From contig JACKCT010000005.1 of assembly GCA_020633895.1 (NCBI GenBank), positions 1 to 64,000 of the forward strand: 64,000 bases of DNA, written 5' to 3'. The translations under genes and the position numbers were made by a program. The stretch comes from Deltaproteobacteria bacterium (lineage in GTDB: Bacteria > Lernaellota > Lernaellaia > JACKCT01). The notes under the pieces are model-generated. The model was given only the letters and a program-made list of their open reading frames with translations. It searched no databases and had not been told where the DNA came from. Below, piece after piece: positions 9,827-62,076 of the stretch. Every line of letters begins with the position of its first letter. Position 1 is the first letter of the stretch.

Positions 9827-9915
9827 GCCGCGTTGTTGCGTCGGCCTGACTGCCGACTTCGCTTCAGCCGAGTACAAGGTGCGGCGCCCGAGACGGGAAC
9901 CGCTCGACGCCCCGC

Positions 9916-12717: not shown

Positions 12718-12764
12718 TTTTTGAAGACTCCCGCGTCCATGGGGCGAGATCGATCCAAGGCGAT

Positions 12765-12812
12765 CGAGCTTAGTCAAAGTCAAGCTTGGTCAAAATCGAG
12801 CTTGGTAAAGCG
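12765..12812 (-). promoter_or_regulatory. Three tandem 16-nt repeats (minus-strand reading …TTTGACCAAGCT…) in the upstream region of the SHOCT-lipoprotein gene
   Basis: CGAGCTTAGTCAAAGT / CAAGCTTGGTCAAAAT / CGAGCTTGGTAAAGCG on the plus strand, 48-95 nt upstream of the ATG at 12717. Each unit carries a TTGAC(C/T) -35-like hexamer on the coding strand. Confidence 0.45.
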
Positions 12813-12888
12813 GGCGAATTTTAGCGGCCCGTCCCTACAAAAGCAACAAAACCGGCCCTGACGCGATTCGGCGCGGGAGAGGACGGCT

Positions 12889-13392: not shown

Positions 13393-13544
13393 CCATCCAT
13401 GGTAAAACGGGGGCTGGAAGCGATCAAGCGCGGGGCCATGGAGCGGCCGCCCGTCGCAATCGCCGGCAGTCGTCTCATCGGATCGAGGCGCGAGGGAACG
13501 AGTCCCGATTGTTGAAGGTCAAGTTGAAGATAAAGATTGACACG

Positions 13545-22206: not shown

Positions 22207-23664
22207 TTACGGCGCCGGGGTATAGCCTCCCGCATTGGGCGAGGCGATGAACTCGGCGGCGAACTCATGGTTCGGGTCGAAGGCGACGGTCCTGGCGTTG
22301 GTCCAGTCGCTCGCCCAGACGGTTCCCTCGGCGGCGAAATACCACAGGTCCGCCACCCAGAACGCGCCCGCGATGGTCAACGGGTCGTCCGTTCCCTTGA
22401 CCCAGGCGTTGTTGTCCTGCGTGTCGAAGACCCACACCGATCCGCTGAAGTTGTCGCCCACGTAGGCCAGTCCGTTGCCGTCGATCGCGATGGGCCCCGG
22501 AGCGCTGCCCACCTCGACGGTGTCGTCGACGGTGTCGTCGGACAGATCGATCATGTCCACCTTGCCCGTGGCCTCGCCGTAGTCGCCGGTTTCCACCACG
22601 TAGAGGTAGTCTTCGTTCGGACCCAGCGCCACGCTGCCCGGATTGATCTGGGACAGTTCGATGGCGCCCACCGACGCCTTGGAGCCGGACAGGTCCACCA
22701 CCGCCAGCTTGCCGGGGGAGGCGTAGCCGAAGGTGTTCGAGTCATAGCCCGTACAGGCCACGTACACCTTGTCGCCCGTCTTCGCGAAATTGGCCGGAAC
22801 GCACTTCTCGGGCAGGGCGACGGTTTCGGCCGTCTCGGCGTTCAGGTCGTAGATCGTCAGATCGTTGGACAGGTTGCCGGTCACGTACATCAGGTCGTTT
22901 TCGATGAACAGATCCCACGCGGCGGCCACGCCGGTCAGCGTTATCGTCTCCACGCTCGGACCGTTCGGATCGATGACCGAGACCAAGCTGTCGGGCGCGG
23001 TGGAGTTGAGGACATAGACTTTGCCTTCGTAGGTGAAGGCGGCGTTGGGAACAGTGAACGAGACCGGGGCGAGGCCGGCGAAGTAGTCGGAGGCGACCAG
23101 GCCCGTGTCCGCGTCAAAGGCCGCCAGCGTGCCGGCGACGGCGTCATAGAGGAACACATCCGGCCCGACGAACACATCGAACGACGCCGAGATCGTGTTT
23201 TTGGCGATGTCCAACAACACGGTGATCGTCGCGCTGCCCGGTCCTTCGGCCCGCAATTGGTGGGCATCGGTGACGGAGACGACGCTGTCGTCGGAGGTGA
23301 GGAACACGAAATTCACCTCGTCGGTTTCCGTATCGTCTTCCAGCACGGCGACCGCCCCGATGTCCCGATCGTCGCCGCCGAGGGTCATGCCGTAGACATC
23401 GGTCGGCACCTTGATCGCCTTGGCGTCGGGCAGCTCCGCCGTGTCGTCGTCATCGTCGTCGTCACCGGTGTCGTCGTCACCGGTGTCGTCATCGCCGGTG
23501 TCGTCGTCGGCCGTGTCGTCATCGTCGGAGTCGGTATCGTCGTCGGAGTCGTAGTACTTGTTGGTCACGTCCTTTTCGCTGCAGCCGGATAGAATCGCGG
23601 CCGAGATCGCCAAGATCAAGAACAGAACCAGGAACGAAAATTGAGGCACCCGGGAAATGGACAT
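22207..23664 (-). CDS. Lipoprotein: poly-Asp linker plus beta-propeller (YVTN/NHL-like) domain
   Basis: MSISRVPQFSFLVLFLILAISAAILSGC (lipobox). The linker reads …DSDDDTDSDDDDTADDDTGDDDTGDDDTGDDDDDDDT…. It is followed by repeated …YVTGNLSNDLTIYDL… and …LYVVETGDYGEATGKVDMIDL… blades. An AAGGAGGG SD precedes the ATG. Confidence 0.7.
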   Translation of the reverse strand: MSISRVPQFSFLVLFLILAISAAILSGCSEKDVTNKYYDSDDDTDSDDDDTADDDTGDDDTGDDDTGDDDDDDDTAELPDAKAIKVPTDVYGMTLGGDDRDIGAVAVLEDDTETDEVNFVFLTSDDSVVSVTDAHQLRAEGPGSATITVLLDIAKNTISASFDVFVGPDVFLYDAVAGTLAAFDADTGLVASDYFAGLAPVSFTVPNAAFTYEGKVYVLNSTAPDSLVSVIDPNGPSVETITLTGVAAAWDLFIENDLMYVTGNLSNDLTIYDLNAETAETVALPEKCVPANFAKTGDKVYVACTGYDSNTFGYASPGKLAVVDLSGSKASVGAIELSQINPGSVALGPNEDYLYVVETGDYGEATGKVDMIDLSDDTVDDTVEVGSAPGPIAIDGNGLAYVGDNFSGSVWVFDTQDNNAWVKGTDDPLTIAGAFWVADLWYFAAEGTVWASDWTNARTVAFDPNHEFAAEFIASPNAGGYTPAP

Positions 23665-24080
23665 TCAGTCCCTCCTTGTCACCCGCAAGGGGGTCGCGCG
23701 TTTCGGGATGGGGAGGCGAGGGCTGATCCGGGGCCGGGCGGCCGGCGAGTCCATCAAAAAACCCCGACGTCGGTGGCGACGCGGGGCTCGGGGGATTCGG
23801 TTTCCCTGGAGCAAACCCGCTCTTTCACCCGAAGAGCGCTGACGGTTTGCGACGGACAAGGCAGTTTTCTGGCTCGGAGCTTTGGGGGCTCCTTACAGTG
23901 GCGGGACCGCTCCGGACTTTCACCGGTCTTCCCTGCGGGAGGAATCATTTCCTCCACCACATGCCCGTCGAACGATTAGATTGTCGTCGGCGCTTCTATC
24001 ACGGCGCTGACGGCGGGTCAAAGGGTATTCCCGTTGCCGATCTCACAGGCGGGACGGATCGAGCGAAGGGGCGGGATCGA

Positions 24081-27722: not shown

Positions 27723-29657
27723 ATGTACAACGAGTTTTTCGGCTTCAAAAAGCTACCGTTTTCGATCACGCCCGACCCCAATTTTGTGTACATGTCCTCG
27801 TCGCACCGAGAGGCGCTGGCGCAGATGATGTACGGGGTGCAGGAGCGCAAGTGCCTGATGGTGGTCTCCGGCGAGGTGGGCGTGGGCAAAACCACGATGA
27901 TCTTCACCCTGCTGTCCCACCTGGAAAAGGACGCCGAGACGTGCATCATCTTCGACACGCACGTCGATTCAAAAAGCCTGTATCGCTATATCTTCGCCGA
28001 CTTCAAGATCAAGGAAAAACCCGAGGACCGGGCCGACGCGACGATCATCCTGCGCGAGCACCTGACGCAACGCCTCCAGGAAGGCAAGCAGACCCTGCTG
28101 ATCCTGGACGAGGCCCACGCCTTGTCCGACGAGATCCTCATGGAGGTCGTCTTCCTGACCAACATGGAGACGATGCAGAACAAGCTGCTGCAGATCATCC
28201 TGGTCGGCCAGACGGAGATCAACCAGGTCCTCACCTCCCACAAATTCCGCCAGCTTCGTCAGCGCATCAATCTGCGCACCGAGATCCGCCCCCTGACCTT
28301 CGACGACACGCGCCATTACATCTACCACCGCGTGCGCGAGGCGGGCCGGGAGGATCCGGAAAACCTGTTCACCGAAGAGTCCATCGCGCTGATCTATCGG
28401 TTCAGTAAGGGCCTGCCGCGCATGATCAACACCATCTGCGACAACTCGCTCTTGGTGGCTTACGCGCGCAAGATCCGCCACGTCACGCCGGAACTGGTCA
28501 AGGAAACGTACGCGGACCTGATGGAAATCGAACAGCGGGCCGAGGGCCCGGGGCCGGAAGCGGCGCAGGCCGCGGCGGCGGACGAGTCGTCCTTCGAGGC
28601 TCCGCCCATGCCCACCGTCGACTCGGAAGGCAATCAGGTGCTCTCCGAGGAAGTCGTCAACCAGACGCAGACCGACGACGAGCAGGTACGCATCGTGCGT
28701 CGCGTGGTGCGCACTCCCGACGGGCGCGAGGTGGTCAAGAAGGTCCGCCAGATCCGGCGCGTCAAACGCAAGCTCGACGATCTGGCCAACGAGGCCTTAA
28801 GCGCCGGTTCGACGGCCGCCGCCGCTTCCAAGAGCGGGCGCATCTCGTCGCTGCCGACGCTCATCCCGCTGCCCGAGGATCTGCCCGAGGTGGGCATTAC
28901 GCCCAACGCCAGCGAGGAATTGCTCGTCGCCATGCGCCACGACAACCCGGCGGCGGTGCGCCAGTATCACCTGCTCTGGAACCGCATCGAGGCGATCAAC
29001 CAAAACGAGGAATGCCGCGCGTTCATCGTCAGCAGTTCCCTGCCCAAGGAAGGCAAGACCATCACCAGCATCAACCTGGCGGCCACCATCGCCCAGGCGC
29101 CGGAGATGCGCGTGCTGCTCATCGACGCGGATCTGCACATGCCTCGCGTGCATGAATACCTGGGGTTGCCCATGCCCGAGACGGGGCTGGCCAATATCCT
29201 GGAAGGCAAGGCCGAGCTGAAGGAATGCCTGATGCGCTACGAGCTGCCGCGCCTGTATTACCTGCCGTCCGGCCAGGTGGAAGGCATGCCCACCGAGCTT
29301 TTGGTCGGCAAGGCGATGGAAAAGCTGCTCGACGAGGTCAAAGGGTACTTTCACTTCATCGTCGTCGACTCGCCGCCGATTGTGCCCATCGCCGATACGG
29401 TGGGGCTGGCGGCCATGGTGGACGGCACGGTGCTGGTGTGCCGCGCCCGCCAGACCAGCAGCAAGGTGCTGATGCAGGCCGCGGAGGATCTCAACGACCG
29501 GCGCATCGTCGGCATCGTGCTCAACGCGTTGGACTTCCGTTTGGCCGGCGGTTATCGCCACGGCTACGGCAAGTACGGCTACGGCAAATACGGCTATGGA
29601 TACGGTTACGGCTACGGGCGACGCAAAGCGGCCGCCGCCGAGGCCAAGACCGGTTAG
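27723..29657 (+). CDS. Fusion protein: N-terminal ExeA/GspA-like AAA ATPase (PEP-CTERM-type EPS 'EpsG-like') and C-terminal BY-kinase (polysaccharide co-polymerase tyrosine kinase) domain with Tyr/Gly-rich tail
   Basis: N-terminus: …VVSGEVGVGKTTM… (Walker A) and …LLILDEAH… (Walker B), typical of the ExeA/AAA_22 family. C-terminus: …SSSLPKEGKTIT… (BY-kinase Walker A), …VLLIDADLHMP… (Walker A', with R→H), …FIVVDSPP… (Walker B), and a tail …YRHGYGKYGYGKYGYGYGYGYG. No TM segment is present. Confidence 0.75.
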   Translation: MYNEFFGFKKLPFSITPDPNFVYMSSSHREALAQMMYGVQERKCLMVVSGEVGVGKTTMIFTLLSHLEKDAETCIIFDTHVDSKSLYRYIFADFKIKEKPEDRADATIILREHLTQRLQEGKQTLLILDEAHALSDEILMEVVFLTNMETMQNKLLQIILVGQTEINQVLTSHKFRQLRQRINLRTEIRPLTFDDTRHYIYHRVREAGREDPENLFTEESIALIYRFSKGLPRMINTICDNSLLVAYARKIRHVTPELVKETYADLMEIEQRAEGPGPEAAQAAAADESSFEAPPMPTVDSEGNQVLSEEVVNQTQTDDEQVRIVRRVVRTPDGREVVKKVRQIRRVKRKLDDLANEALSAGSTAAAASKSGRISSLPTLIPLPEDLPEVGITPNASEELLVAMRHDNPAAVRQYHLLWNRIEAINQNEECRAFIVSSSLPKEGKTITSINLAATIAQAPEMRVLLIDADLHMPRVHEYLGLPMPETGLANILEGKAELKECLMRYELPRLYYLPSGQVEGMPTELLVGKAMEKLLDEVKGYFHFIVVDSPPIVPIADTVGLAAMVDGTVLVCRARQTSSKVLMQAAEDLNDRRIVGIVLNALDFRLAGGYRHGYGKYGYGKYGYGYGYGYGRRKAAAAEAKTG

Positions 29658-29718
29658 CGTCGGCGCCGCTTCGATTGCAAGCGGCCTAGCGACGGACTTC
29701 GATGAGGGAGACGACGAC

Positions 29719-30498
29719 ATGACCAGACGCATCGCGTTCATCCTGGTCGCCTTGATCGCGCTGGGTCTTTTCGCCGGGAGCGCCGCCGCTCAGGTGATTT
29801 CGGGCGAGCAGTTCATCGTCGTGCGATACTACGCCGGCGACGTGCTGGTCAAAACCATCACCGTCACGCCCGACGGCCGCTCGTTGCAGACCGTGCCCAA
29901 CGCGGGCCTGGTGGGCAGCATCGACACGGCCAAGGCCTATCTGGTCGAGGGCAAGATCGAAACGCCCATCGGCTTGGGCGGAGGCTCGACCGGCACGGGC
30001 GGAACGGGCCTGGAGTCGCGCGACGCCTATCTGATCGGCCCGGAAGATCGGCTGGCGATCAACGTCTGGGAAAACGAGCAGCTCACCCGCGACGTCCCGG
30101 TGCGCCCCGACGGGATGATCTCCATGCCGTTGCTGGGCGATATCCACGCCGCCGGCATGACGACCACGGCGCTCAAGAACTACATGACCGAGCAGCTCAA
30201 GCGCTACATCGAAAACCCGGTCGTGACCGTCACCGTCGCGGAGATCAATAGCTACAAGGCTTACGTCCAAGGCAACGTCAACAGCCCGGGCGAGTACAAG
30301 ATTTCCGGCCAGACCACCGTCACCCAGGTCATCAGCCTCGCCGGCGGCTTCAACGAATTCGCCGACCAGGGCAACATCCGCATTCTGCGTCCGGCCAAGG
30401 CGGGCAAGCAGACGATCAAGGTCAACTACAAGCGGATTCTCAAAGGCAAGGACGACGATGAGCGCATCCTTCCCGGCGACACCGTCGTGGTTCCCTAA
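29719..30498 (+). CDS. Polysaccharide export protein, short Wza/EpsA-like (Poly_export + SLBB)
   Basis: The ATG at 29719 with a GGGAG SD gives signal peptide MTRRIAFILVALIALGLFAGSAAA. The …IGPEDRLAINVWENEQLTRDVPVRPDGMISMPLLGDIHAAGMTTTALKNYMT… block is the poly-export domain. The protein lacks the long C-terminal helix of full-length Wza. Confidence 0.8.
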   Translation: MTRRIAFILVALIALGLFAGSAAAQVISGEQFIVVRYYAGDVLVKTITVTPDGRSLQTVPNAGLVGSIDTAKAYLVEGKIETPIGLGGGSTGTGGTGLESRDAYLIGPEDRLAINVWENEQLTRDVPVRPDGMISMPLLGDIHAAGMTTTALKNYMTEQLKRYIENPVVTVTVAEINSYKAYVQGNVNSPGEYKISGQTTVTQVISLAGGFNEFADQGNIRILRPAKAGKQTIKVNYKRILKGKDDDERILPGDTVVVP

Positions 30499-36159: not shown

Positions 36160-37026
36160 ATGTCCGATCGACTACGCGGTATCGTCTCCATCCTGATCGC
36201 CTGCCTGTTTTTCGCCTCCGGAACGGTCGGCGCGAAATTGCTTTCGGGCACTTTCTCCGGCTCCTACATGGCCCTGGCGCGCTTTGTCGTGGGGGCGGTG
36301 CTGGTCTTCGGGGCGGTGGGGATCACGCGGCGGCCGCTTCGGGTGACGAACTGGCGGGCGTGGATCGGGCGCGGGCTGTTCGGCGCGCTGGCGATGGTCT
36401 TTTATTACGTGGGCATCGCGGCGACCAGTTCGGGCCGGGCGACGCTGCTGCTGGGGATGGCGCCGGCGTTCGTGTTGGTGATCGGGGCGCTGTTTTTCAG
36501 CGAGCAGTTCCGCTGGGGCTATGTGTTCGGGCTGGCGCTGTGCATCGGCGGGGCTTCGCTGATTTTGAGCGATGGGTCGAGCTACCCCCTCTGGGGCGAT
36601 CTGACGCTCCTGGCCGCGGCGCTGATGCGCGGTTTCGCCCTCAACTACATCCGCGAGTTGCGCACCGACGCCCACGACCCGGTGACGATTTATTTCGCGG
36701 TGTGCGTGTTCGGCCTGCCGATGGTGCTGCACACCGCGCCCGAAACGGCGCACATCACCGCTTCGAACCTGCCGCTGCTGCTGGCCGTCTCGGCGATCAT
36801 GTTCTTCGCGCAGATTTTCTTCGCCTACGGCTTCAAGCACACCAGCGCCGTTGCCGCCGGGCTGCTCACTTACCTGGTCATCCCCTTGGCGGTCGGGCTG
36901 TCGATCGTCTTTGTCCACGAGCGGATCACGCCGCGATTCATCGCCGGGGCGTTGGCGATTTTCCTCGGTCTGGTCGGCGCGGCGTGGATGGTGAATCGGC
37001 CGGGCAAGGCGACACCTGCGGACTAG
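36160..37026 (+). CDS. EamA/DMT-superfamily transporter
   Basis: 10-TM protein with two EamA repeats; 288 aa. Confidence 0.8.
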   Translation: MSDRLRGIVSILIACLFFASGTVGAKLLSGTFSGSYMALARFVVGAVLVFGAVGITRRPLRVTNWRAWIGRGLFGALAMVFYYVGIAATSSGRATLLLGMAPAFVLVIGALFFSEQFRWGYVFGLALCIGGASLILSDGSSYPLWGDLTLLAAALMRGFALNYIRELRTDAHDPVTIYFAVCVFGLPMVLHTAPETAHITASNLPLLLAVSAIMFFAQIFFAYGFKHTSAVAAGLLTYLVIPLAVGLSIVFVHERITPRFIAGALAIFLGLVGAAWMVNRPGKATPAD

Positions 37027-37243: not shown

Positions 37244-38254
37244 TTACTCGGTCGCGGCCTCGACATCCCCTTCGGCCTCGGCGGTCGCCTCGGCGACGGA
37301 CTCGGAGGTGACGGTCACGCCCAGGCTCCCCATCTCGCCGGTCGGCACCGTCGTGTCGATAAGCAGACGCGGGTCCACGGGGCGCAGCGGGTCGGGATCG
37401 ATGTCGCCGGGACGGCGCTCCTGCAGCAGGCTTTGGCGCGTCGGCTTCATGCGGATTTCCACGCGACGATTTTCCTGGCGACCGTCGGCGGTGTCGTTCG
37501 AGGCGACCGGGCGCGTGTCGCCCATGGCCGCCGCGCTGTAGCGCGTTTCGTCGCCGGACGCGAGCGCGAGCATGCGTTTGACGACCGACGAGGAACGGGC
37601 CGCGGACAGGGACCAGTTGTCGGCCATGGAACCGCCTTCGGGCGGGCGATTGTCGGTATGCCCCTCGACCGAAACGCTCAGGTCATAGACGGACGCCGCT
37701 TCGGCGATTTTCGCCAGAAGAGGATTGGCGTCGGGGCTGACCTCCGTGTCGCCGGGCCCGAAGGTCAGCGACTCGGGCAGACGCACCCGAATGCCTTCCC
37801 GATCCGCCGAGAAGACGATCTTTTCGTCAATCCCGAAGCGGTTGGTCAGGTCCACCAGGCTCACCCAGGTCTCATCCTCGCCCACACGCTCGCGACGCAC
37901 TTCCTGGACCAGTTGGCCCAGGGGCGTGTTGCCGGTGTTGCGAACGTCGGTAAGGTCCGACGTGGTGGTGTCCGGCTCGGCGGAGAGATTACGGGCGACC
38001 TGGAAGAGCAACTGGATGCTGGGAATGAACGTCGGATTGGCCGGCACCGGCTCCTCGGGCTGGATGGCAGCGTAGACCAGCTCCGAGGCGGCCTGGGAAA
38101 TAGTCCGGGCTTTCTGGTCGTCCAGGGACGACATGGTCAGCAACAAGACGAAGAAGGTGAGCATCAGCGTGATCAGATCGCTGAAGGTCAGCATCCATCC
38201 CAACGGATCCGGGCCGTCGGCGGGGACGATTTTGACGTTCTTGTTCTTGCTCAT
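37244..38254 (-). CDS. motB: MotB-like stator subunit (OmpA-like peptidoglycan-binding C-domain), channel Asp present
   Basis: The N-terminal TM …WMLTFSDLITLMLTFFVLL… carries the conserved Asp. The C-terminal …HTDNRPP…NWSLSAARSSSVVKRML…NRRVEIRM is an OmpA/MotB domain. Confidence 0.8.
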   Translation of the reverse strand: MSKNKNVKIVPADGPDPLGWMLTFSDLITLMLTFFVLLLTMSSLDDQKARTISQAASELVYAAIQPEEPVPANPTFIPSIQLLFQVARNLSAEPDTTTSDLTDVRNTGNTPLGQLVQEVRRERVGEDETWVSLVDLTNRFGIDEKIVFSADREGIRVRLPESLTFGPGDTEVSPDANPLLAKIAEAASVYDLSVSVEGHTDNRPPEGGSMADNWSLSAARSSSVVKRMLALASGDETRYSAAAMGDTRPVASNDTADGRQENRRVEIRMKPTRQSLLQERRPGDIDPDPLRPVDPRLLIDTTVPTGEMGSLGVTVTSESVAEATAEAEGDVEAATE

Positions 38255-39087
38255 CGACCTTCGTCCGGGACCGCTTCGGGCGCCTTGCTGGGCCCTCGGA
38301 AGGGGTTGCGCAAGCCGAAGGCGGTCCAGAAATCCCGACGTTGGGTAGCGGCCTTGGCGGCCATCGCCTGACGTCGGCCCTCGCGGATGTTGTTGAGGGT
38401 GACGACGACGCGCCGGTTGCTGGTGGTCAGCAGGTTCGGGCTGTTGATGTCCACTTGTTCGTCGTTGGTGCCCTTGGCGGTGACGCGCAGTTTCTCCGCC
38501 TTGACCCCGGCCGCCATCAGCGCCCGCGCCGCCGCGATGGAGCGATTCATGGACAGATCCCAGGGCGAGGCCGAGCCCGGCTCGTCCGCCTCGGCATAGC
38601 CGGTCAGCTCGATGCTCAGGCCGTATTCCCGCGCCGGGGCCGTGACGACTTCCAGCAGATCCAAGGCCGATTCGGACAGGGTGTCGCTGCCCGGCGCGAA
38701 CATCAGCGCCTCGGGAAAGGTGATGTTGATGTCATAGTCGTTGGGCACGGCGAGCATACGCACGCGCATCGCCTTGGCTTCCATCGCCGAGTGGATCTTG
38801 CGGTAGACCGGGTCGTGAATGACCGACAGGGTCTTGATCCATTCGTTGACGTTTTCCAAGGCGTCGTCGCTGGTGAACTTGAGCAGGCTGTATTGGAAGG
38901 GCATGCCGCCCTCGACGATGCCGAAGGTGCCGACCAGGGAGTTGAGGGCCTTGTGCTTGCGCGCCTCGTCGATCACCGCGATGGAGTTGAGCAGAATGAA
39001 AAAGCACAGCAGCAACAGGAACAGCGAAGTCACCAGAACGATGTTGGGGTCGCTCTCCCGTTCCTCGTAGATCTTTTTCTTGCCCAT
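38251..39087 (-). CDS. MotB-like stator paralogue lacking the conserved channel aspartate
   Basis: TM …IVLVTSLFLLLLCFFILLNSIAV… has no Asp. OmpA-like C-domain (…NRSIAAARALMAAGV…NRRVVVTL). The ATGA at 38251-38254 overlaps the downstream motB. Confidence 0.7.
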   Translation of the reverse strand: MGKKKIYEERESDPNIVLVTSLFLLLLCFFILLNSIAVIDEARKHKALNSLVGTFGIVEGGMPFQYSLLKFTSDDALENVNEWIKTLSVIHDPVYRKIHSAMEAKAMRVRMLAVPNDYDINITFPEALMFAPGSDTLSESALDLLEVVTAPAREYGLSIELTGYAEADEPGSASPWDLSMNRSIAAARALMAAGVKAEKLRVTAKGTNDEQVDINSPNLLTTSNRRVVVTLNNIREGRRQAMAAKAATQRRDFWTAFGLRNPFRGPSKAPEAVPDEGR

Positions 39088-39099
39088 GGCGCGCTCCGG

Positions 39100-39867
39100 C
39101 TATTTGTCGAACTGGGACTTGCGCATATTCGGCGGCAACAGGCTGTTGAGGCGCGACTCGATGACGCGGGGGTTGTCGCCTTTGGAGATGGATTCGACGC
39201 CCACCATGATGATGGTGTTGTAGAGGACCTCGGAGGAGCTGCGCGTGCGCAGCTTGCCGGCCAGGGGGTTGAAGACCACGTTGGCCAGCATGGCGCCGTA
39301 AAACGTCGTCAACAGGGCGACGGCCATGGCGGGACCGATGGCCGACGGGTCGGCCATGTTCTGGAGCATCTGCACCAGGCCGATGAGCGTTCCGATCATG
39401 CCCATGGCCGGGGAGATGGTGCCGGCGGTTTGGAGGATATCGGCGCCTTTCTTGTGCCGGTCGGCCAGCGCCTCGATCTCCGATTCCATCTGGGAGACGA
39501 TCGCCTCGGTTTCCGAACCGTCCACGGCCATCATCAGGCCCTTCTTGAGGAAGGGGTCCTTCACGTCCTTGCCGGCTTCCTCCAGGGCGAGGATGCCTTC
39601 GGTGCGCACGAGCTGGCCGAACTTGACCAGGCGATCGACGTATTCGTCGGGAGCGAGATCCCGATTGAAAAAGCCTTTGCTGACCACCTTCGCCAGGCCG
39701 GCCACGTCCTTGAGCGGATAGGAGACCAGCACCACCATCAGCGTACCCAGGACGGTGATCAGCACCGACGGCACGTCAATGAAAATCGCCAGCGAGCCGC
39801 CCAGCAGCATCGCGGTGGCCACCAGGCCGAAGGTTCCGACCATACCGATTAGAGTGGCGATATCCAT
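39100..39867 (-). CDS. motA: MotA/TolQ/ExbB-family proton-channel stator subunit
   Basis: 255 aa, 4 TM helices, with conserved …GTISPAMGMIGTLIGLVQML… and …ALLTTFYGAMLANVVFNPLAGKL…. Confidence 0.85.
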   Translation of the reverse strand: MDIATLIGMVGTFGLVATAMLLGGSLAIFIDVPSVLITVLGTLMVVLVSYPLKDVAGLAKVVSKGFFNRDLAPDEYVDRLVKFGQLVRTEGILALEEAGKDVKDPFLKKGLMMAVDGSETEAIVSQMESEIEALADRHKKGADILQTAGTISPAMGMIGTLIGLVQMLQNMADPSAIGPAMAVALLTTFYGAMLANVVFNPLAGKLRTRSSSEVLYNTIIMVGVESISKGDNPRVIESRLNSLLPPNMRKSQFDK

Positions 39868-40078
39868 TTGTTCGATCCCTCGTGCGTGTTGCCGTTGTTG
39901 GGCGCCGTTTTTCTATTCCCGGCGCGTCGATCTTTCATCGTCGAACGGGGCAAAGTCCTAAAGAATGGAAAAGAGGGCCGATGGGCGAAATGTGGAATTC
40001 GTGCGGCTTGATCCGGACCGGCCCGTCGCCTATTGTGGGCGGCCCGTTGAGACGCAAGCCCCGTGAAGGATCGTCCGT

Positions 40079-42496
40079 TTGTCCGAACAAGTCCAAGATC
40101 CCATCCTGCGCGACCTGAATCCCGAGCAAAAACAAGCGGTTTTGCACGACGCGGGGCCGTTGTTGATCTTCGCCGGGGCCGGGTCGGGCAAGACGCGGGT
40201 GCTCACGCGGCGCATCGCCTATCTGGTGGCCCGGCGGGGGGTGGATCCCTATCGCATCCTGGCCGTGACATTCACCAACAAGGCCGCGGCCGAAATGCGC
40301 GAACGCATCAGCGGCATGCTCCCCGGCGTGGGCGAGAAGGTGTGGGTTTCGACCTTCCACTCGTCCTGCGCGCGCATCCTGCGGATGGACGGCGACAAGA
40401 TCGGCTTCGACCGCTCCTTCACCATCTACGACGAGGCCGACCAGCGGGCGCTGGTCAAGGAACTGCTGCGTCGGGCGCAGATCGACCCGACGGTGCTGGA
40501 CCCGCGTCGCGTGCTGTCGGTTTTTGACGAGGCGAAGAACAATCTGACGAATCCGGCGGACCTGGCCTCGGACCACTTCACCGGCCCGGCGCGGGATCGG
40601 TTTTTGCGCATCGCGGAGATGTATACCAAGGAGCTCAAGGCCAACAACGCGATGGACTTCGGCGATTTGATCGTCAACACGGTGGAGCTTCTTCGCACCG
40701 ATTCGGAAGTGCGGGAGGCCTATCGGCGGCGCTTCGAATATATTCTTGTGGACGAGTTCCAGGACACGAACGCGGCCCAGTACACCCTGCTGGATTTGCT
40801 GCTGGGCTCCCACCGCAATCTGTGCGTCGTGGGCGATGACGACCAGAGCATTTACCGCTGGCGCGGCGCGAATATCGAGAACATCCTGGGCTTCGCCGAC
40901 CAGTTTCCCGAGGCGACCAAGATCATCCTGGGGCGCAACTACCGTTCCTCCTCCAACATCCTGGCCGTCGCCGACGCCTTGATCCGACGCAACACCGGCC
41001 GAGAGATCAAGAACCTCCAGACTTCCAACGACCCGGGCCGCCCCGTGCGTCTGTTTCGCGCCGACGACGAATACGACGAAGCGCGCTACGTGGCCGACCA
41101 GATCCGGGATCTGGTCGAACGCCTGGGCATCCCGCCGGGCGACATCGCCGTGTTTTATCGCATCAACGCCCTGTCCCGCGTGTTCGAAGAAGAGTTGATG
41201 CGACGAGGCACGCCGTTTGTCGTCGTGGGCGGCACGCGGTTCTACTCCCGCAAGGAGATCAAGGACGTGCTGGCCTATTGGCGCGTCATCGCCAACCCGG
41301 CCGACAGCGTCAGCGCCAAGCGCATCATCAACACGCCCTCGCGCAAAATCGGCAAGACGACGGTGGAGCGAATCGACGACTTCGCCGCCGAGCAGGGTTT
41401 GCCGTTTCTTGTCGCCGCGCGACGGATGGTCAAGACCGAAGAACTGCCCGCCGCCGCGACGAAGGCCGTGGCCGGGTTCATCGAAATTGTCGACGAGTTG
41501 ACCGCCGATTCGCTGCGTTCGTCCTTGCCCGACCTGCTGGAAAAAACCCTGCAACGCACCGGCTACCGCAAGATGCTCAACGAGGACAAGTCGGTGGAGG
41601 CGCTGTCGCGCAAGGAGAACCTGGGCGAGTTGGCCGAGGCCGTGGCCCAGTACACCAAGCGCTCGCCCGACGCGGTGCTGGCCGATTATTTAGAAGCGGT
41701 GACGCTCACCGAGCAGGCCGACGAGGCGGCGGACGTGGACAATTCGGTGCGCCTGATGACGTTGCACAACGCGAAGGGGCTGGAGTTTCCGGCCGTGTTC
41801 ATGGTGGGCATGGAGGAGGCGGTGCTGCCCCATTCCCGTTCGATTTCCTCGGGCCTGACCGCCGAGATCGAGGAGGAGCGGCGCCTGGCCTACGTGGGCA
41901 TCACCCGCGCGAAACGTTATTTGACGCTCACCTGCGCGGCGCGGCGTCGGTCCTATTCCGGCCTGCCGACGTACGCCCGGCCCAGTCGTTTCCTCGACGA
42001 AATCCCCGAGGACATGCTCGACATCCAGGGCTTCGCGGCCAATCCCTTCGGCTCGCCCCTGGGCGCCGAGGAGCCGGGGGGAACGGTTTACGAATTCGAC
42101 CAACCCCGGGGGCGCAACTTCGGATCCGGCTCGCGTTCCTTCGACCGGCCGCGCCCGTCGACGCCTCGTCCTTCCTACGCCTCGAACGAACAGGCCACGC
42201 GTGTCGCGCGGCGTCGTCCCGGCGATTCTTCAAGGCCCACCGGATTTGTCCCCGCCGGGGAAAAGGTCCTCGACTACGGCGCTCCCGCGAAAAAAACCGC
42301 GACACCCTCCGCGAGCGGAGCAGGCAAGGGCGGCGGCGCGCTGCGCGTCGGGCAGAAGGTCCTGCACGCCAAATTCGGCAACGGCGAGGTGCTCTCCGTC
42401 GTCGGCCAGGGCCCCAAGGCCAAGGTCATGGTCCGCTTCGGCTCGGTCGGCGTGAAGACGATGTTCCTGCAATACGCGAATCTGGAAACGGTGTAG
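40079..42496 (+). CDS. uvrD: ATP-dependent DNA helicase PcrA/UvrD
   Basis: Motifs I (AGAGSGKT), Ia, II (DEFQDTN), III-VI, and a C-terminal Tudor-like tail (…GQKVLHAKFGNGEVL…); 805 aa. Confidence 0.92.
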   Translation: MSEQVQDPILRDLNPEQKQAVLHDAGPLLIFAGAGSGKTRVLTRRIAYLVARRGVDPYRILAVTFTNKAAAEMRERISGMLPGVGEKVWVSTFHSSCARILRMDGDKIGFDRSFTIYDEADQRALVKELLRRAQIDPTVLDPRRVLSVFDEAKNNLTNPADLASDHFTGPARDRFLRIAEMYTKELKANNAMDFGDLIVNTVELLRTDSEVREAYRRRFEYILVDEFQDTNAAQYTLLDLLLGSHRNLCVVGDDDQSIYRWRGANIENILGFADQFPEATKIILGRNYRSSSNILAVADALIRRNTGREIKNLQTSNDPGRPVRLFRADDEYDEARYVADQIRDLVERLGIPPGDIAVFYRINALSRVFEEELMRRGTPFVVVGGTRFYSRKEIKDVLAYWRVIANPADSVSAKRIINTPSRKIGKTTVERIDDFAAEQGLPFLVAARRMVKTEELPAAATKAVAGFIEIVDELTADSLRSSLPDLLEKTLQRTGYRKMLNEDKSVEALSRKENLGELAEAVAQYTKRSPDAVLADYLEAVTLTEQADEAADVDNSVRLMTLHNAKGLEFPAVFMVGMEEAVLPHSRSISSGLTAEIEEERRLAYVGITRAKRYLTLTCAARRRSYSGLPTYARPSRFLDEIPEDMLDIQGFAANPFGSPLGAEEPGGTVYEFDQPRGRNFGSGSRSFDRPRPSTPRPSYASNEQATRVARRRPGDSSRPTGFVPAGEKVLDYGAPAKKTATPSASGAGKGGGALRVGQKVLHAKFGNGEVLSVVGQGPKAKVMVRFGSVGVKTMFLQYANLETV

Positions 42497-49433: not shown

Positions 49434-50612
49434 TCATTCCGTGACCTCGTGCCAGAGCAGGACGTCGATCGGGTCGGCCACGATGTTGTACGCCGACGAG
49501 TAGGTGTACCAAAAATTCGGGTCCGAATTGTTCGAGAACTCGGACGGGTTCTGCACGGTGACGGTGCCGAACGCCGTGACCACGCCCGTGTATTTGATCT
49601 TGCCGTGCAGCTCGTAGTCGCCCTCGGCGTAGGTCAGGCCGTTGAGGAAATTCTGCTGATTGCCGCCGCTGGCGAAGTCGAGCAGCACATCGTCCTTGCT
49701 GATAAGGCTCACCGTCGTGCCGTTGCCCGAGGAAATGCCCGCGCCGATGATCTTGCCCGTGCAGATGATGGTGCCGATGCCCTGGATCGCGCCGTGCAGC
49801 ACCAGGTCGCCGTCCACGTAGATCGCGCGCTTGCCGTCCGCGTCCTCGGGCACGTTGTTGAAGTTCAGGTTGTTGATGGTCATGGGCGTGTCGCCGTTGC
49901 CCATGATGCCGTCCGAATCGTAGGAGTAGCCGACCGGCGCCTTGTGGGCCAGGTCCACCCAGTCCTCGTCCGAGAGCTTGGCCGCCGACAGGTCCAGGGC
50001 CTCTTTCTCATACCGATGCACCGGATTGGTGTTCGATCCGTCCACGAAATTGATCGTGGAGGTGGACGGGGCGTAGATATTCAGATCCGGCGTTCCCGAG
50101 TCCAGATCCAGATAGGCGTCGCCGTTCAAACGCACGCCCTCGGAACTGACGCGGGGCTTGCCGGCCAGCAACAGGTCGCCGCCCACGTTGAGCGCGTGGT
50201 CGAAAGCCGAATCGATGTTCACCACTACTTCGATAATGCGCAGGCTGTTTCCCGACTGCCCCCGGGAGACCAGCCGCGCGATCTGTCCGGAAAGCGTGTC
50301 GACGGTGACTTCGTAGGACGTGCCGTTGGCCTGAGCCGTCGACGGGATGCCCGCGGTCCATTCGTTATTTTCGCGAAGCTCCGCGATGGCGTTTTGGACA
50401 CCCGCCTCGGCGGCGAAGAACGCCTGGGCTCCGGTGCGGTAATTGGCGGTGATCTTCAGGTCCGTCGAGGCCACGACCATGCCGCCCATGCCGACCAACA
50501 GCGTGAGCATCAGGACGACCATCACGACGATCATCACCACGCCGCGCCGGTCGTTCCGGGCGATTCGCGGGAATTTTCGTCGGGTCTGTCGCATCTTCGA
50601 CGTCCTAGTCAC
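49434..50612 (-). CDS. PilX-like type IV pilus minor pilin/assembly protein (PilX_N domain)
   Basis: The N-terminus …RRGVVMIVVMVVLMLTLLVGMGGMVVASTDLKITANYRTGAQAFFAAEAGVQNAIAEL… matches the PilX N-terminal domain. 392 aa, larger than typical PilX. Confidence 0.7.
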   Translation of the reverse strand: MTRTSKMRQTRRKFPRIARNDRRGVVMIVVMVVLMLTLLVGMGGMVVASTDLKITANYRTGAQAFFAAEAGVQNAIAELRENNEWTAGIPSTAQANGTSYEVTVDTLSGQIARLVSRGQSGNSLRIIEVVVNIDSAFDHALNVGGDLLLAGKPRVSSEGVRLNGDAYLDLDSGTPDLNIYAPSTSTINFVDGSNTNPVHRYEKEALDLSAAKLSDEDWVDLAHKAPVGYSYDSDGIMGNGDTPMTINNLNFNNVPEDADGKRAIYVDGDLVLHGAIQGIGTIICTGKIIGAGISSGNGTTVSLISKDDVLLDFASGGNQQNFLNGLTYAEGDYELHGKIKYTGVVTAFGTVTVQNPSEFSNNSDPNFWYTYSSAYNIVADPIDVLLWHEVTE

Positions 50613-53600
50613 AGTGGTCCGGGTACACGCAGTCCCCGGCCTGCTGGAAGTTGCTTTCGCAGCTTGCGCTCCGGTTGCCGGACGAATCCACGGCCCGGAT
50701 GTAGTAGCCGTAGCACTTGTTGTTTGTGTTCAAGCTGTTCTGATCGTCCACGTACTCGATGAGCGAGGGCGAGGACGCATCGATGTCGGTGACTTCGGTG
50801 TATTTTTTCTGGAAGCTGCCGCAATCGGTGCGCCGGTAGACGTCGTAGCCGACCACGTCCGGTTCCGAATTCGCCAGCCACGACAAGCCGACTTCCTTTT
50901 TGCCGTACGCGGTGGCCACCAGGCCCGCGGGGCACGCCGGGGCGCTGGTGTCTTCGTCCAGATCGTAGGTGTACGCCCCGGCCGACGGGCTGCGGTCCGA
51001 TTGGCCCAGGTTGTCCACCGCCTGGAGGTAGACCCACACGCGGGCGTTGTCGGCGTAAGGCAGCGTTCCGCCGTAGCCGCCCACATCGCCGTCGTATTCC
51101 AAATCCACATAGCTGTAGCCGCCGGTGGGCGCCGTGCCGTTCATGGACAGGTCGATCTTGTAGTACGCCCGCACCGACTGCAGGCCCGCGCCCGAGTAAT
51201 CCACGACCGCCGCGTGCACCGGCACCTGACGATATTCCTGCACATGCACCGCCCCCACCGACGCGCTCATGGGCGTGCTCGCCGACGGTTCGTCCTGGTA
51301 GGCGGTGCCGATGGCCGGTCCGGCGGAGACGGACACGGTGATCTCGTCGGTGGTGCAGGCCCGTTCGCTGTCGTCCAACTCGTAGGTGAACGACACGCTC
51401 ACCACCGCGCCGGACATGGGCATCATGCTGTCCGATTCGACCACGGAGACGCGCGCGCCGGCCGAGTGGCTCTGGGCGGTCGGAGCCGACAGGGACAAAA
51501 CGCCCGTACCCACGCTGCTGACGACCGCCTGCTCGGCCTCGTCGCCGATGTAGATGGTGTCGCCGACGCTAAAGCCCGCGGAGTTGTCCACCGACAGCAG
51601 GCTCGCGCCCGAACCGGTGTACGCCGACAGCTTCGTCGAGGAGTGGACGAATTCCAGCGACACGGTGGCCGTTTCTTCCGAGTCCAATTCCACTTCGTCG
51701 GACGAGTCGAATTCGAGCGTCTGGTCGCTGGGCAGCGGGCCGTCGTCGGAGCCGTCCCACAGCACGTCCGAGTCGGGGATCGCGACGCTGTAAAGGCGGG
51801 CCTGCGTGCGGTCCCAGCCGACGGTCAAGCCGCTGATGGTCGCGCGCGTGGTCGCGGTGTTTTTGATGCGGAAGTTGACCACCTGCTTGTGATCGCCGCC
51901 CAGGGAATTGGTGTAGGTGTCGTCGCGCTCGATGGCGCCGCCCTCGATGTGGAACTGGCGATATTCGGACTGCGTCGTCTGGCCTTCGTTGTCGGTGGCG
52001 ACCACATAGGCGTTGTAGGTTCCCGCGCACCAGGTGCTCACGTCGCCGTCGTCGCAGGGGATCTGATCGCCGCCGAATCCGCAGTACTGGGGAACCCGTT
52101 CCGTGTGGGGGAACTGGCCGGTTTCCGGATCGGGGGTGACGAAGAACTGCACGTTGTCGATGCCCAGGCCGTTGGAGTCGCCTTCGCTGTAGCCCGGCTC
52201 GTCCGGGTCCGCGGCGGTGGCGCGCAGGAAGAGGACACCGTTGGTGATGACCTGGCCCTCGGCCGGTTCGACCATCTGCACCACCGGGCCCTGAGCGTTG
52301 GGCGCGGCCTGGGCGGTGGTTTTGTCCGAGCAGTTGCCGCAGCGATCGCACGCGAAGGCGCTGTAGTAATAGGTGACGCCGTTGATGAGGTTCTCGTGGG
52401 CGAAGGTCATGGCCGCGCCCGGTTGGCCGGTGATGTTGGCCACCTCGTTGCCGGACTGCGTCGAGAGGGGATAGCCGGTGGTGGACGAACGCACCACCAC
52501 CCGTTCAAAGTCGGTGGCGGCCGGGTTGGTCCAGGACAGGTTCACCGTCTGGTCGCCCCCGCCCGCGCCGAAGGGTGCGGGAGCCGACGGGGGCGTGGGC
52601 GGATCTTCGCCGGGCGCGGTGTCGGTCTCGCCCATGTTGGGCGCGTCGTCGCCGGCTCCGTCGCCGTCACCGTAGACCAACTCGCTGGGCTCGCCCTCGT
52701 CCACGCAGTCCACGGAGGTCAGGCGGTAATAGTACGTCCGGCAGGGGTCGACGGCCGTGTCGGTGAATTCCAACGTTTCGTTGTCCAGTTCGGTTTCGTC
52801 GGCGATGCGGGAGCCTTCGGTCAAGGCGAAGTTCGGTTCGGTGCCGCGATAGAGGCGATAGCCGGACACGTCCAGATCCGCGGGCGGATCCCACGTCAGC
52901 AGGACCGAGCCCACGGCCGCGGAGGCGTCGATATTCATCGGCGGGTCGGGGCGCTCGTTGTCGAGCAGGGTGAAGCTCGTCTCCGAGGAAGGCACCGATT
53001 CGTTGAAGTTGGAGTCGTAGGCAATCATCGAAACGAAGTAGGTCGTTTCGTTGGCCAGGCGCGGGTCTTCCACCACGATTTCGCCGGACGTCTCGTCGGC
53101 CACGTTGTAGGGCGGGGTGAGGTAGTCGCCGGACGCGGGGCCGTAGAGAACCTTGTAGCCGCCCAGGTCCGTCAGATCCGAACCGTCGCAGGCGTTCGTG
53201 TTCGGCGGCGTCCAACGCACTTCAAAGTGCCCGCACATGCCGGTTTCCAACACCTGCAGCATGGACGGCGGATTCGGCGCGCAAGCGTCCTCGCTGAATC
53301 CCCGGGCGCCCATGTTGCGCAGATCCACCGTGGACGCGTAGGTGCGCGTGCGGCCGGTACTGGAGATTTGGCTGGTCATCTCAATCTGGATGCGGCGGAT
53401 CGCGGCGCGCTCGGTGGGCGTGAGGCTGGTGAGGGTTTCGGGCGTCATCTCCTGCTCCGCCTCGTTGAAATAGCGGAAGGAAAAATCGATGACGTCGGTG
53501 GCCATTTCCTCGCCGTTTTTCGCCAGCAGGGTCTGGGGGTAATTGAAGTCGTAGGTGATGGATTCGACGGTCTTGATGAACGTCCCGCCCGCCGGGAAAT

Positions 53601-54096
53601 CCTCGGTCAGGGGCTGGGCCAGATTGATGACGTCCGGTTCGCCGCCCAGTTCCACCGGGTTGGACGTCGACACGGCGCGCATCTCGACCGTATTGCCGCT
53701 ATGCAAAAAGATGAAGTCGCCGGGCTCAATCGTGTCCTGCTCGTCGTTCAGGTCGACGTAAAGCTGCGTGTCGCCGGCGTTGGCGGCCTGGGCGAGCACG
53801 GCGTTGATGTCCGAATCCACGTCGCCCCGGAAGGTCAGGCTGGTGAGCTGGGCGTCGGCGAAGGTCTGCTGTCCGACCACGCCGAAGTTGGCCATGCGCA
53901 ACTCGCGGGTGATCTGTTCGAGCGCCAGCTTGGCCGATTGCTGCACCTGGGACTGCTGTCCGATGGCCAAAAAGCCCCGGGACTGGGCGGTGTAGACGGT
54001 GTAGGCCGCGATCATCACGCCCACGGCGAGCGTCATGGCGATGGCCGTTTCGATCAAGGTGAAACCCGCGCGGCGGCGGCGAGGCGAAAATCCCAT
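50605..54096 (-). CDS. Giant type-IV-prepilin-like protein (PilW position) with FN3-like repeats and a Cys-rich C-terminus
   Basis: The N-terminus MGFSPRRRRAGFTLIETAIAMTLAVGVMIAAYTVY is a class III signal with a G|FTLIE prepilin cleavage/methylation site. Several …SGYRLYRGTEPNF… / …VGYDVYRRTDCG… fibronectin-III-like modules follow; 1163 aa. Confidence 0.7.
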   Translation of the reverse strand: MGFSPRRRRAGFTLIETAIAMTLAVGVMIAAYTVYTAQSRGFLAIGQQSQVQQSAKLALEQITRELRMANFGVVGQQTFADAQLTSLTFRGDVDSDINAVLAQAANAGDTQLYVDLNDEQDTIEPGDFIFLHSGNTVEMRAVSTSNPVELGGEPDVINLAQPLTEDFPAGGTFIKTVESITYDFNYPQTLLAKNGEEMATDVIDFSFRYFNEAEQEMTPETLTSLTPTERAAIRRIQIEMTSQISSTGRTRTYASTVDLRNMGARGFSEDACAPNPPSMLQVLETGMCGHFEVRWTPPNTNACDGSDLTDLGGYKVLYGPASGDYLTPPYNVADETSGEIVVEDPRLANETTYFVSMIAYDSNFNESVPSSETSFTLLDNERPDPPMNIDASAAVGSVLLTWDPPADLDVSGYRLYRGTEPNFALTEGSRIADETELDNETLEFTDTAVDPCRTYYYRLTSVDCVDEGEPSELVYGDGDGAGDDAPNMGETDTAPGEDPPTPPSAPAPFGAGGGDQTVNLSWTNPAATDFERVVVRSSTTGYPLSTQSGNEVANITGQPGAAMTFAHENLINGVTYYYSAFACDRCGNCSDKTTAQAAPNAQGPVVQMVEPAEGQVITNGVLFLRATAADPDEPGYSEGDSNGLGIDNVQFFVTPDPETGQFPHTERVPQYCGFGGDQIPCDDGDVSTWCAGTYNAYVVATDNEGQTTQSEYRQFHIEGGAIERDDTYTNSLGGDHKQVVNFRIKNTATTRATISGLTVGWDRTQARLYSVAIPDSDVLWDGSDDGPLPSDQTLEFDSSDEVELDSEETATVSLEFVHSSTKLSAYTGSGASLLSVDNSAGFSVGDTIYIGDEAEQAVVSSVGTGVLSLSAPTAQSHSAGARVSVVESDSMMPMSGAVVSVSFTYELDDSERACTTDEITVSVSAGPAIGTAYQDEPSASTPMSASVGAVHVQEYRQVPVHAAVVDYSGAGLQSVRAYYKIDLSMNGTAPTGGYSYVDLEYDGDVGGYGGTLPYADNARVWVYLQAVDNLGQSDRSPSAGAYTYDLDEDTSAPACPAGLVATAYGKKEVGLSWLANSEPDVVGYDVYRRTDCGSFQKKYTEVTDIDASSPSLIEYVDDQNSLNTNNKCYGYYIRAVDSSGNRSASCESNFQQAGDCVYPDHCD

Positions 54097-54098
54097 GG

Positions 54099-54494
54099 CT
54101 ATCTCCTAGCCACCAGCGTGTCCAGCACGACGGACACGCCTTGGGACGACCACACCTGGATGCGGACGGTTTTGAGATTGTCGTCCGCGTTGGTGGTGAC
54201 GGTGGTGTTGCGAGCGTAGGTGGCGTAGTCGGGGATGCCGCCGTAGGGTTCGTTGGTTTCGATGACCTCGTCGTAGCCCCGGCTTTTGACGTCTTCCATC
54301 GCCGATTCGGCGAGCTGCGTCGCGACCATGACCGCCGCGGAGGACCGCTGACCGTTATAGATCGCCATCAGCGTCGACGCCGTCGCCAACAGGCCCACGG
54401 TCAGCAGGCCGATGGACACCACCACCTCGACCAGCGTGAAGCCGTCGCGGCTTGTCGGTCGGTGGCGCGGGCTATGGCGCATGGAGATCGTCAT
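54099..54494 (-). CDS. PilV-like type IV pilus minor pilin
   Basis: MTISMRHSPRHRPTSRDGFTLVEVVVSIGLLTVGLLATASTLMAIYN… carries the prepilin motif and a PilV-type N-domain; 131 aa. Its start overlaps the upstream stop (TAATG). The track ORF is over-extended to 55196. Confidence 0.75.
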   Translation of the reverse strand: MTISMRHSPRHRPTSRDGFTLVEVVVSIGLLTVGLLATASTLMAIYNGQRSSAAVMVATQLAESAMEDVKSRGYDEVIETNEPYGGIPDYATYARNTTVTTNADDNLKTVRIQVWSSQGVSVVLDTLVARR

Positions 54495-55093
54495 TAGCGG
54501 AACTCCAGCCAGGGGCCGTCCAGGTTGCCGCCGTCGAAACGCAGCATCTTGACGTTGCCGGTGCCGTGGATGTTGACCGCCCGGTCCCGCTGCGTGGCCA
54601 TCGCGGACATATCCTGGGAGGTGGACAGATAGATGGTTCCGGCGTCCAGGGCGGCGCCGTTGGATTTGAAGGTGACGTGAATCGGGTCGGAGGTGCCGTT
54701 CATCTGCACCGGCAGACCCAGGGGATTGCCCAGCAGGTCGGTGTGGGAGGCGGAGCCGTACTGCAGCCCCGGACCGATGGCCGACAGTTCGACGGTTTTG
54801 TACAGATCGTAGAGGTCCGGGCCGTTGCGCTCGGCGTCCTTGTAGATCGAGTAGGTGTGCGTTTCCAGGTTGAAGGTGACGATCACGTCGTAGTTGCCGT
54901 CCACCGCCAGCGAACGGGCCAGACGCATGTCCATGGCCACGGTGCGAACGGCGTTGTTGACGGTAAGCTGCCGCTGCCACGCCGCCATCGAAGGAACCAC
55001 AAGGACGGTGGCCCCCATGATCGCCATCACGATGATCAGCTCCAGGAGCGTAAATCCTGCTCGGCGGCTGGTTTTTCGGCGCGACGTGCTCAA
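54494..55093 (-). CDS. FimT/GspH-family type IV minor pilin
   Basis: …SRRAGFTLLELIIVMAIMGATVLVV… (prepilin motif) plus a GspH-like body. A TTG start is preceded by GGGAGGAAG. First gene of the operon. Confidence 0.75.
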   Translation of the reverse strand: MSTSRRKTSRRAGFTLLELIIVMAIMGATVLVVPSMAAWQRQLTVNNAVRTVAMDMRLARSLAVDGNYDVIVTFNLETHTYSIYKDAERNGPDLYDLYKTVELSAIGPGLQYGSASHTDLLGNPLGLPVQMNGTSDPIHVTFKSNGAALDAGTIYLSTSQDMSAMATQRDRAVNIHGTGNVKMLRFDGGNLDGPWLEFR

Positions 55094-61941: not shown

Positions 61942-62076
61942 CCGCCGGGACCGCGTAACACACGGATGACGGCGAGACAAGCGGCTCGCGGCTCGGACGG
62001 GATGTGGTCGGCCTCCCTCTACGACCGCTCGGCCGCCCGCTTGCCCCCCACGCGCGCCGCTTCTAAGATCGCCGAC

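Follow-up and report, generated by a model that had tools for sequence, protein, structure and literature searches.

A three-gene cassette, motA-motB'-motB, is encoded on the minus strand of contig JACKCT010000005.1 (assembly GCA_020633895.1, Deltaproteobacteria bacterium), of which positions 1 to 64,000 (64 kb, here called the window) were analysed. It is a flagellar-family stator operon of the PomA type and, as we consider with moderate confidence, one that was moved out of the flagellar gene cluster in this lineage, that is, a relocated flagellar stator. The middle gene encodes a MotB paralogue without the canonical ion-binding aspartate, a point that had been missed in an earlier, sequence-only reading of the same DNA. 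The headline of that reading, a rare and context-free stator for an unidentified machine, was found to be overstated. More notable are the aspartate-less MotB' subfamily, which occurs widely in flagellar operons and has apparently not been described, and a deep lineage in which the cassette is detached. Because motB' and motB overlap at ATGA and the 12-nt spacer between motA and motB' contains GGAG, the three genes form a single, tightly coupled operon, and the translational coupling of motB' and motB fits a roughly equimolar synthesis of the two proteins. The open reading frames and the overlap were exactly as given in the sequence-only reading.

The product of motB is a canonical stator B subunit. 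It matched the Pfam families MotB_plug (53.8 bits) and OmpA (54.1 bits, cut-off 27.2), and the NCBIfam models MotD (132 bits) and MotS (130 bits) each scored under their cut-offs. The motif WMLTFSDLIT carries the ion-binding aspartate, which was present in all 84 MotB sequences compared. The product of motB' also matched OmpA above the cut-off (42.1 bits), as had been claimed for both genes, and scored 23.6 bits with MotB_plug against a cut-off of 24; its best NCBIfam match was MotD, at 55 bits. The two B subunits share 20% identity and have different transmembrane motifs. MotB' in the window reads IVLVTSLFLL, with serine where canonical MotB has the ion-binding aspartate. No aspartate was found at this position in the 84 MotB' sequences; serine accounted for 74%, and alanine, threonine, glycine and cysteine were seen among the others inspected. 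The helix of MotB' ends with FFILLN, and the asparagine, which replaces a leucine of the MotBs, was conserved in 100% of the 84 sequences. The segment that follows the helix is unlike the MotB plug and has a juxtamembrane motif of its own, A..SL.G.FG, with the serine in 100% and the phenylalanine in 99% of the sequences (n=84). As judged from these alignments, one B subunit of the cassette has no canonical aspartate with which to bind the coupling ion, and the helix region of MotB' is under very strong constraint. If the helix lies within the MotA ring, near-invariance of the helix and of the following segment would be expected.

The residues for binding peptidoglycan in the OmpA-like domain were largely kept across the 84 MotB' sequences. 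An AlphaFold model of MotB' (mean predicted local distance difference test score 64.6, about 80 in the OmpA-like domain) placed a transmembrane helix at residues 14-39, a second helix at 41-55 and the OmpA-like domain at 110-232. The top Foldseek matches of this model were the periplasmic domains of Salmonella MotB, B. subtilis MotS and H. pylori MotB, with a probability of 1.00. A MotB' profile run against a library of 1.84 billion protein representatives gave 559 matches at E<=1e-30, some canonical MotBs included, and among the best 150 of these (148 retrieved) 80 had the asparagine without the aspartate. By these sequence comparisons MotB' is a distinct, conserved, old and widespread subfamily for which NCBIfam has no dedicated model. 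We found no description of an aspartate-less MotB paralogue in the searchable literature, which does not prove that none exists.

In two alphaproteobacterial loci (L062 and L072, from AAP38 and Niveispirillum) a MotB'-like gene was observed immediately upstream of motB; no motA adjoins the pair, and fliL/fliM are a few kb away. The encoded proteins have FFILLN, and glycine at the aspartate position. The MotB' subfamily thus occurs outside the three-gene layout as well.

The A subunit had been described as MotA/TolQ-like. The product of motA matched Pfam MotA_ExbB with 106 bits and scored highest in NCBIfam with PomA (284.5 bits), followed by MotP (239 bits) and MotA (205 bits); the TolQ and ExbB models reached about 25 bits, roughly ten times less, and PADLOC gave no ZorA match. 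The closest solved structure was Vibrio alginolyticus PomA (8BRI), aligned over the full length (residues 1-254) with 217 bits and 44% identity. The residues in contact with the rotor protein FliG (R88, E96, E97) are present in the window MotA, as are the channel prolines P153 (P151 in PomA) and P201 (P199) and also R234 (R232). In PomA numbering, R88, E96, E97, P151, P199 and R232 were kept in 9/9 members of a clade of stand-alone cassettes described below, with one E96D change. The threonines T160, T187 and T188 correspond to T158, T185 and T186 of PomA, and this triad was found in 9/9 stand-alone and 78/78 flagellar operon-embedded homologues. The triad is described as conserved in all Na+-driven stators (Hu et al., PMC10374538), whereas T158 and T185 have alanine in their place in H+-driven stators (PMC10374538). 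Since the triad is kept, Na+ coupling is a reasonable inference and the cassette stator is probably Na+-coupled.

We then looked at the distribution of the cassette. An alignment of MotB' homologues was scanned against one genome per GTDB species (185,579 species genomes), and MotB' relatives were found in 159 species-level genomes. Eighty loci were fetched among these relatives and annotated with phmmer. motA together with two B genes was present in 75 of the 80, and in 70 of those 75 the trio was located inside a canonical flagellar operon with the order fliI-fliJ-fliK-flgD-flgE-motA-motB'-motB-fliL-fliM-fliN-fliOPQR-flhB-flhA. The same embedded order was seen on two metagenome contigs. The five trio loci that were not embedded comprised three truncated contigs and the two closest relatives of the window (L008 and L009), each with only one MotB' locus per genome in the species scan; if these two organisms are flagellated, the cassette would be their MotB'-type stator. 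The carriers belong to Desulfobacterales, Desulfarculaceae, Thermodesulfobacteriota, Myxococcota, Nitrospirae, Tectomicrobia, Acidobacteriota, Sumerlaeota, Niveispirillum/Azospirillum and Thiohalorhabdus. Desulfocarbo indianensis (L022), Desulfosudis oleivorans (L080) and Niveispirillum lacus (L079 region) are examples of cultured organisms with the embedded form.

One MotA with two MotBs is thus a common flagellar arrangement, and the embedding in 70 of the 75 trio-bearing loci makes the cassette type flagellar by association. The sequence-only reading had called stator complexes that have two distinct plug/anchor subunits rare and had proposed a check of the cassette's co-occurrence across genomes. 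The rarity was contradicted by these counts and by an operon of Aquifex (PMC4525482), and the trio, once checked, turned out to be common and mostly within flagellar operons, with detached copies, truncated contigs aside, only in relatives of the window. The embedded cassettes of Desulfobacterota, Myxococcota, Nitrospirota, Acidobacteriota and others (L003, L007, L010-L087) have the same gene order as the window, a MotB' without the aspartate but with FFILLN and A..SL.G.FG, and a canonical MotB. They are located between flgE and fliL, whereas the window cassette is stand-alone; the window MotA is only 47-55% identical to their MotAs and branches outside them.

A search with the window MotA retrieved a tight group at 59-72% identity, followed by the bulk of flagellar MotAs at <=58%. 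Of the members that could be placed on a contig, namely the window and seven further loci (L001, L002, L008, L009, L088, L089, L090), all had the trio and none had a flagellar gene within +/-10 kb; at least eight related genomes or contigs share the detached arrangement. The genes beside the cassette varied between these loci (PcrA/EamA; UvrD/LPG synthase; PMT_2/HlyIII; Aldedh/Fer4), and in no stand-alone locus was a conserved non-flagellar partner gene found next to it. In a neighbour-joining tree of MotA, rooted on PomA and made without bootstrap support, the stand-alone clade was monophyletic and fell outside the operon-embedded cassettes. Compared with embedded cassettes, this clade has longer versions of both B subunits. 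Its MotBs exceed the embedded ones by 50-90 amino acids; the linker is longer, and the C-terminus is extended, with P(A/V)DPxGS as a conserved motif of the extension. The window motB, whose C-terminal part is at 37244-37450, ends in an acidic tail of low complexity. When stand-alone MotAs were aligned and used to scan metagenomes, the matches listed were only ordinary MotAs (43-55% identity), with no clade members among them.

The best non-self matches of the PcrA encoded beside the window cassette were 57% and 55% identical, one of them on the same 569,306-bp contig as the L008 cassette; the remaining PcrAs were below 50% and spread over many phyla. On this evidence the stand-alone clade follows the organismal descent of a deep, uncultured lineage. 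Between the window and L008, MotA is 72% and PcrA 55% identical, and the cytoplasmic loop of MotA shows 64% identity within the stand-alone clade against 51% among embedded MotAs. These values indicate that purifying selection on the cassette is strong.

The coordinates of the cassette and its surroundings are given in the table.

Table. Features of the stator cassette and its immediate surroundings in the 64-kb window.
Feature	Position	Strand or orientation	Description
motA	39867..39100	minus	255 amino acids; PomA-like stator A subunit with four transmembrane helices and a cytoplasmic torque-generating domain
motB'	39087..38251	minus	278 amino acids; aspartate-less MotB paralogue with transmembrane helix, conserved juxtamembrane helix and OmpA-like domain
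motB	38254..37244	minus	336 amino acids; canonical stator B subunit with TFSDL aspartate, plug, long linker, OmpA-like domain and acidic C-terminal tail
ATGA overlap of motB' stop and motB start	38251..38254	minus	ggtcgATGAgcaag; translational coupling
motA-motB' spacer	39088..39099	minus	TAGccggagcgcgccATG; 12 nt with GGAG
motA/pcrA divergent intergenic region	39868..40078	.	presumed promoter region
EamA transporter	36160-37026	convergent to cassette	neighbour
PcrA/UvrD helicase	40079-42496	divergent from cassette	neighbour

The surroundings agreed with the sequence-only reading, both in the two neighbouring genes and in the lack of flagellar, Tol-Pal, TonB or gliding genes nearby. When the open reading frames of the window were compared by phmmer with 17 flagellar proteins from related loci, only the three cassette genes matched. 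A Pfam scan of about 40 window proteins detected no flagellar, chemotaxis, Tol-Pal, TonB/ExbBD or gliding genes; the scanned proteins were products of housekeeping, envelope, exopolysaccharide and type IV minor-pilin genes. No flagellar genes were found in 10 kb added beyond one edge of the window. No Zorya genes were found in the window, and ZorC, ZorD and ZorE were absent among the neighbours of the cassette. In the region upstream of motA a sigma-70 consensus was not found and nothing convincing was seen for sigma-28 or sigma-54, and a search for either of the latter two upstream of motA in the window and five stand-alone relatives gave no consistent match. An Rfam scan near the cassette found no riboswitch or RNA element.

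Three of the relatives were observed to have a common motif upstream of motA, TCTTTCGCTTCAATTTGTC..GG..T.TGCTAAGAAA (L008, about 9000-9218; L009, about 5730-5944; L089, about 9790-10000). It resembles a sigma-70 promoter (TTCAAT-17-TAAGAA) and is absent from the window, which has a higher GC content. Further from the cassette, a cobalamin riboswitch was found in the window at 23843-23978 on the minus strand (Rfam RF00174, 49.4 bits, gathering score 31.5). The open reading frame downstream of it (23664..22207, minus strand, 485 amino acids) had no Pfam match and may be an uncharacterised B12-regulated gene.

The type IV minor-pilin and exopolysaccharide genes that had been reported from the window were recovered. 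The minor-pilin cluster (49434-55093, minus strand) includes a PilX_N protein and a GspH/FimT-like pseudopilin, has a 1163-amino-acid protein containing fn3 where PilY1 usually sits, and is flanked by two GDSL lipase genes. The exopolysaccharide genes are located at 119-1498 (minus strand) and 27723-30498 (plus strand) and encode a Bac_transf initiating sugar transferase, a Wzc-like AAA_31 protein of the tyrosine-kinase type and a Wza-like Poly_export/SLBB protein. A Wzz/Poly_export pair was also seen near the cassette of one relative (L088). For the last open reading frame of the window (61966-63936) no exact protein record was found. In a second assembly, GCA_020633875.1, the left end of the window was on a 378-kb contig (JACKCU010000002.1) and the cassette on a separate 24-kb contig (JACKCU010000030.1).

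Several lines of evidence make a relocated flagellar stator the most likely reading of the operon. All relatives of the cassette are flagellar, its MotA preserves the main FliG-contact residues along with the entire torque-generating domain, and no alternative partner gene travels with it. In addition, detached motAB operons are common in flagellated bacteria. The kept rotor-contact residues in particular favour a flagellar role, and the organism would then be expected to have a flagellum. In such a stator the rotating ring would be made of five MotA subunits, and the canonical MotB would provide the ion-binding aspartate, the plug and a peptidoglycan anchor. MotB', an ancient paralogue that lacks the aspartate and has an invariant asparagine close to the helix's periplasmic end as well as a conserved juxtamembrane segment of its own, would most likely fill one of the two central B positions, giving a MotB'/MotB heterodimer and a one-aspartate stator; separate, non-conducting MotA5MotB'2 units, acting as placeholders or regulators, seem a less likely alternative. 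Both OmpA-like domains would anchor the unit to peptidoglycan, and the unit would dock onto the FliG protein of a flagellar rotor whose genes lie elsewhere in the genome.

A number of observations weigh against this reading. No sigma-28 promoter was found upstream of motA. MotA also missed the NCBIfam equivalog cut-off for PomA (284.5 bits against 341) and the other equivalog cut-offs, so that by these models it is a stator-family member outside every named NCBIfam equivalog. Two residues of the window MotA, T89 and N217, stand in place of charges that are conserved in the operon-embedded homologues. Position 89 is threonine or glutamine in the stand-alone clade, arginine or lysine in 78/78 embedded MotAs and lysine in PomA. 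Position 215 in PomA numbering is asparagine in the clade, lysine or arginine in 72/78 and tryptophan in 6/78 embedded MotAs, and arginine in PomA. These changes could reflect an altered partner. We know of no precedent for a single-aspartate heterodimer, and the ion-binding aspartate is regarded as universally conserved and is required in each of the two B chains by current 5:2 models (PMC10374538). Finally, about 216 kb of DNA from nine genomes or contigs of the lineage showed no flagellar gene; as only about 1% of a genome is taken up by flagellar genes, this negative result carries almost no information.

In one relative of the lineage (L171, PcrA 55% identical), a gene adjoining pcrA (12531-13823, plus strand) matched Pfam FlgT_N with 29.7 bits (cut-off 28.8). 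The match is marginal, covers the N-domain only and has no homologue in the window, and it was not counted as evidence of a flagellum. Genes for a DUF4384 protein and a CsgG-like lipoprotein were found beside it.

Some of the points above would also fit a loss of the flagellum with retention of the stator. The peptidoglycan-anchored MotA5-MotB'/MotB unit would then drive or gate a different machine encoded elsewhere, for which a surface-motility, secretion, pilus or polysaccharide apparatus would be candidates. We regard this as possible but rather unlikely. All members of a monophyletic clade have the cassette in detached form, with different neighbours each time, two positive charges at rotor-facing positions (89 and 215) were lost throughout the clade, and the lengthening of both B subunits, with the conserved C-terminal extension of MotB, is also clade-wide. 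The lack of flagellar genes in the lineage DNA that was covered points in the same direction, and the strong conservation shows that the cassette is in use. Against this, no conserved non-flagellar partner adjoins the cassette at any locus, and detached motAB operons are, as said, common in flagellated bacteria. R88, E96, E97 and the whole torque-generating domain are retained, all the nearest cassette relatives are flagellar, and in the known non-flagellar 5:2 motors the cytoplasmic domains are quite different (PMC12505986). A more specific form, in which a PomA-like stator uncoupled from the flagellum and with a single-aspartate MotB'/MotB heterodimer as its stalk would power a different envelope or surface machine, is slightly more doubtful still.

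A decaying remnant, left from a lost flagellar system and without current function, is a very unlikely reading of the cassette. Decay might be suspected from the lack of a flagellar context and from the OmpA motif of the window MotB', which is somewhat degenerate (GYAEAD instead of GHTD). However, the three open reading frames are intact in at least nine deeply diverged genomes or contigs (PcrA about 55% identical), MotA identity across the clade is 59-72%, the residues invariant in the subfamily are all kept, and translational coupling is preserved. Least credible of all is a non-flagellar member of the MotAB-like superfamily (Zorya ZorAB, Tol-Pal TolQR, TonB-ExbBD or gliding AglRQS), as the stand-alone operon, the weak ZorB matches (<=63 bits, caused by the shared OmpA-like domain) and the similar make-up of AglRQS are set against a MotA of 255 amino acids without a ZorA match or the long ZorA tail, the absence of ZorC/D/E neighbours, TolQ/ExbB scores far below their cut-offs next to 284 bits for PomA, and an OmpA-like domain in both B proteins, which TolR, ExbD, AglQ and AglS lack. 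An assignment to Zorya, Tol or Exb was accordingly rejected on the PADLOC and NCBIfam scores, and one to Agl on its defining features, given the PomA-like A subunit and the OmpA-like domain in both B subunits.

These results bear on how stators are thought to work. In current rotary 5:2 stator models, two equivalent aspartates of the B chains alternate in ion binding. A conserved B paralogue that lacks the aspartate, is here translationally coupled to a canonical MotB and occurs across several phyla departs from a residue that has been called universally conserved (PMC10374538). If MotB' does pair with MotB in the MotA ring, such motors would run on one aspartate and would offer a direct test of the alternating-site mechanism; if it forms non-conducting units instead, these would be a built-in placeholder or brake. 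The cassette located away from any flagellar gene would be either an ordinary relocated stator or a rare case of a flagellar-type stator reused for another role.

Among known systems, Zorya ZorAB is like the window cassette a stand-alone MotAB-like operon outside a flagellar context with a peptidoglycan-binding B subunit, but the window has neither a ZorA match nor the long cytoplasmic tail, and ZorC/D/E partners are absent. AglRQS of Myxococcus combines one A-type with two different B-type subunits; AglR is TolQ/ExbB-like, and AglQ and AglS have no peptidoglycan-binding domains. The cassette differs in its PomA-like A subunit and in the OmpA-like domains of both B subunits. AglRQS has been listed among the non-flagellar homologues (PMC12505986). 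Aquifex aeolicus, a flagellated bacterium, has a motA/motB1/motB2 operon with a PomA-like stator of the Na+ type (PMC4525482), and as in the window two motB genes come after a single motA in one operon. The Aquifex type is characterised by MotB copies with near-identical transmembrane/N-terminal regions, each usable in a functional chimeric stator, whereas the B subunits of the window are only 20% identical, have different transmembrane motifs and include one without the aspartate.

A further comparison is with the Na+-driven PomAB stator of Vibrio (PDB 8BRI/8BRD; PMC10374538). The cassette differs from it by the extra, aspartate-less B paralogue between the A and B genes, by threonine instead of lysine at position 89 and by the lack of MotX/MotY and flagellar genes near it. 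R88/E96/E97, P151/P199 and T158/T185/T186 are common to PomA and the window MotA, and the third gene encodes a PomB-like T-F-x-D motif, a plug and an OmpA-like anchor. The window MotA has the full-length PomA/MotA homology by which the flagellar stator A family ('FIT/TGI4' of PMC12505986) is recognised.

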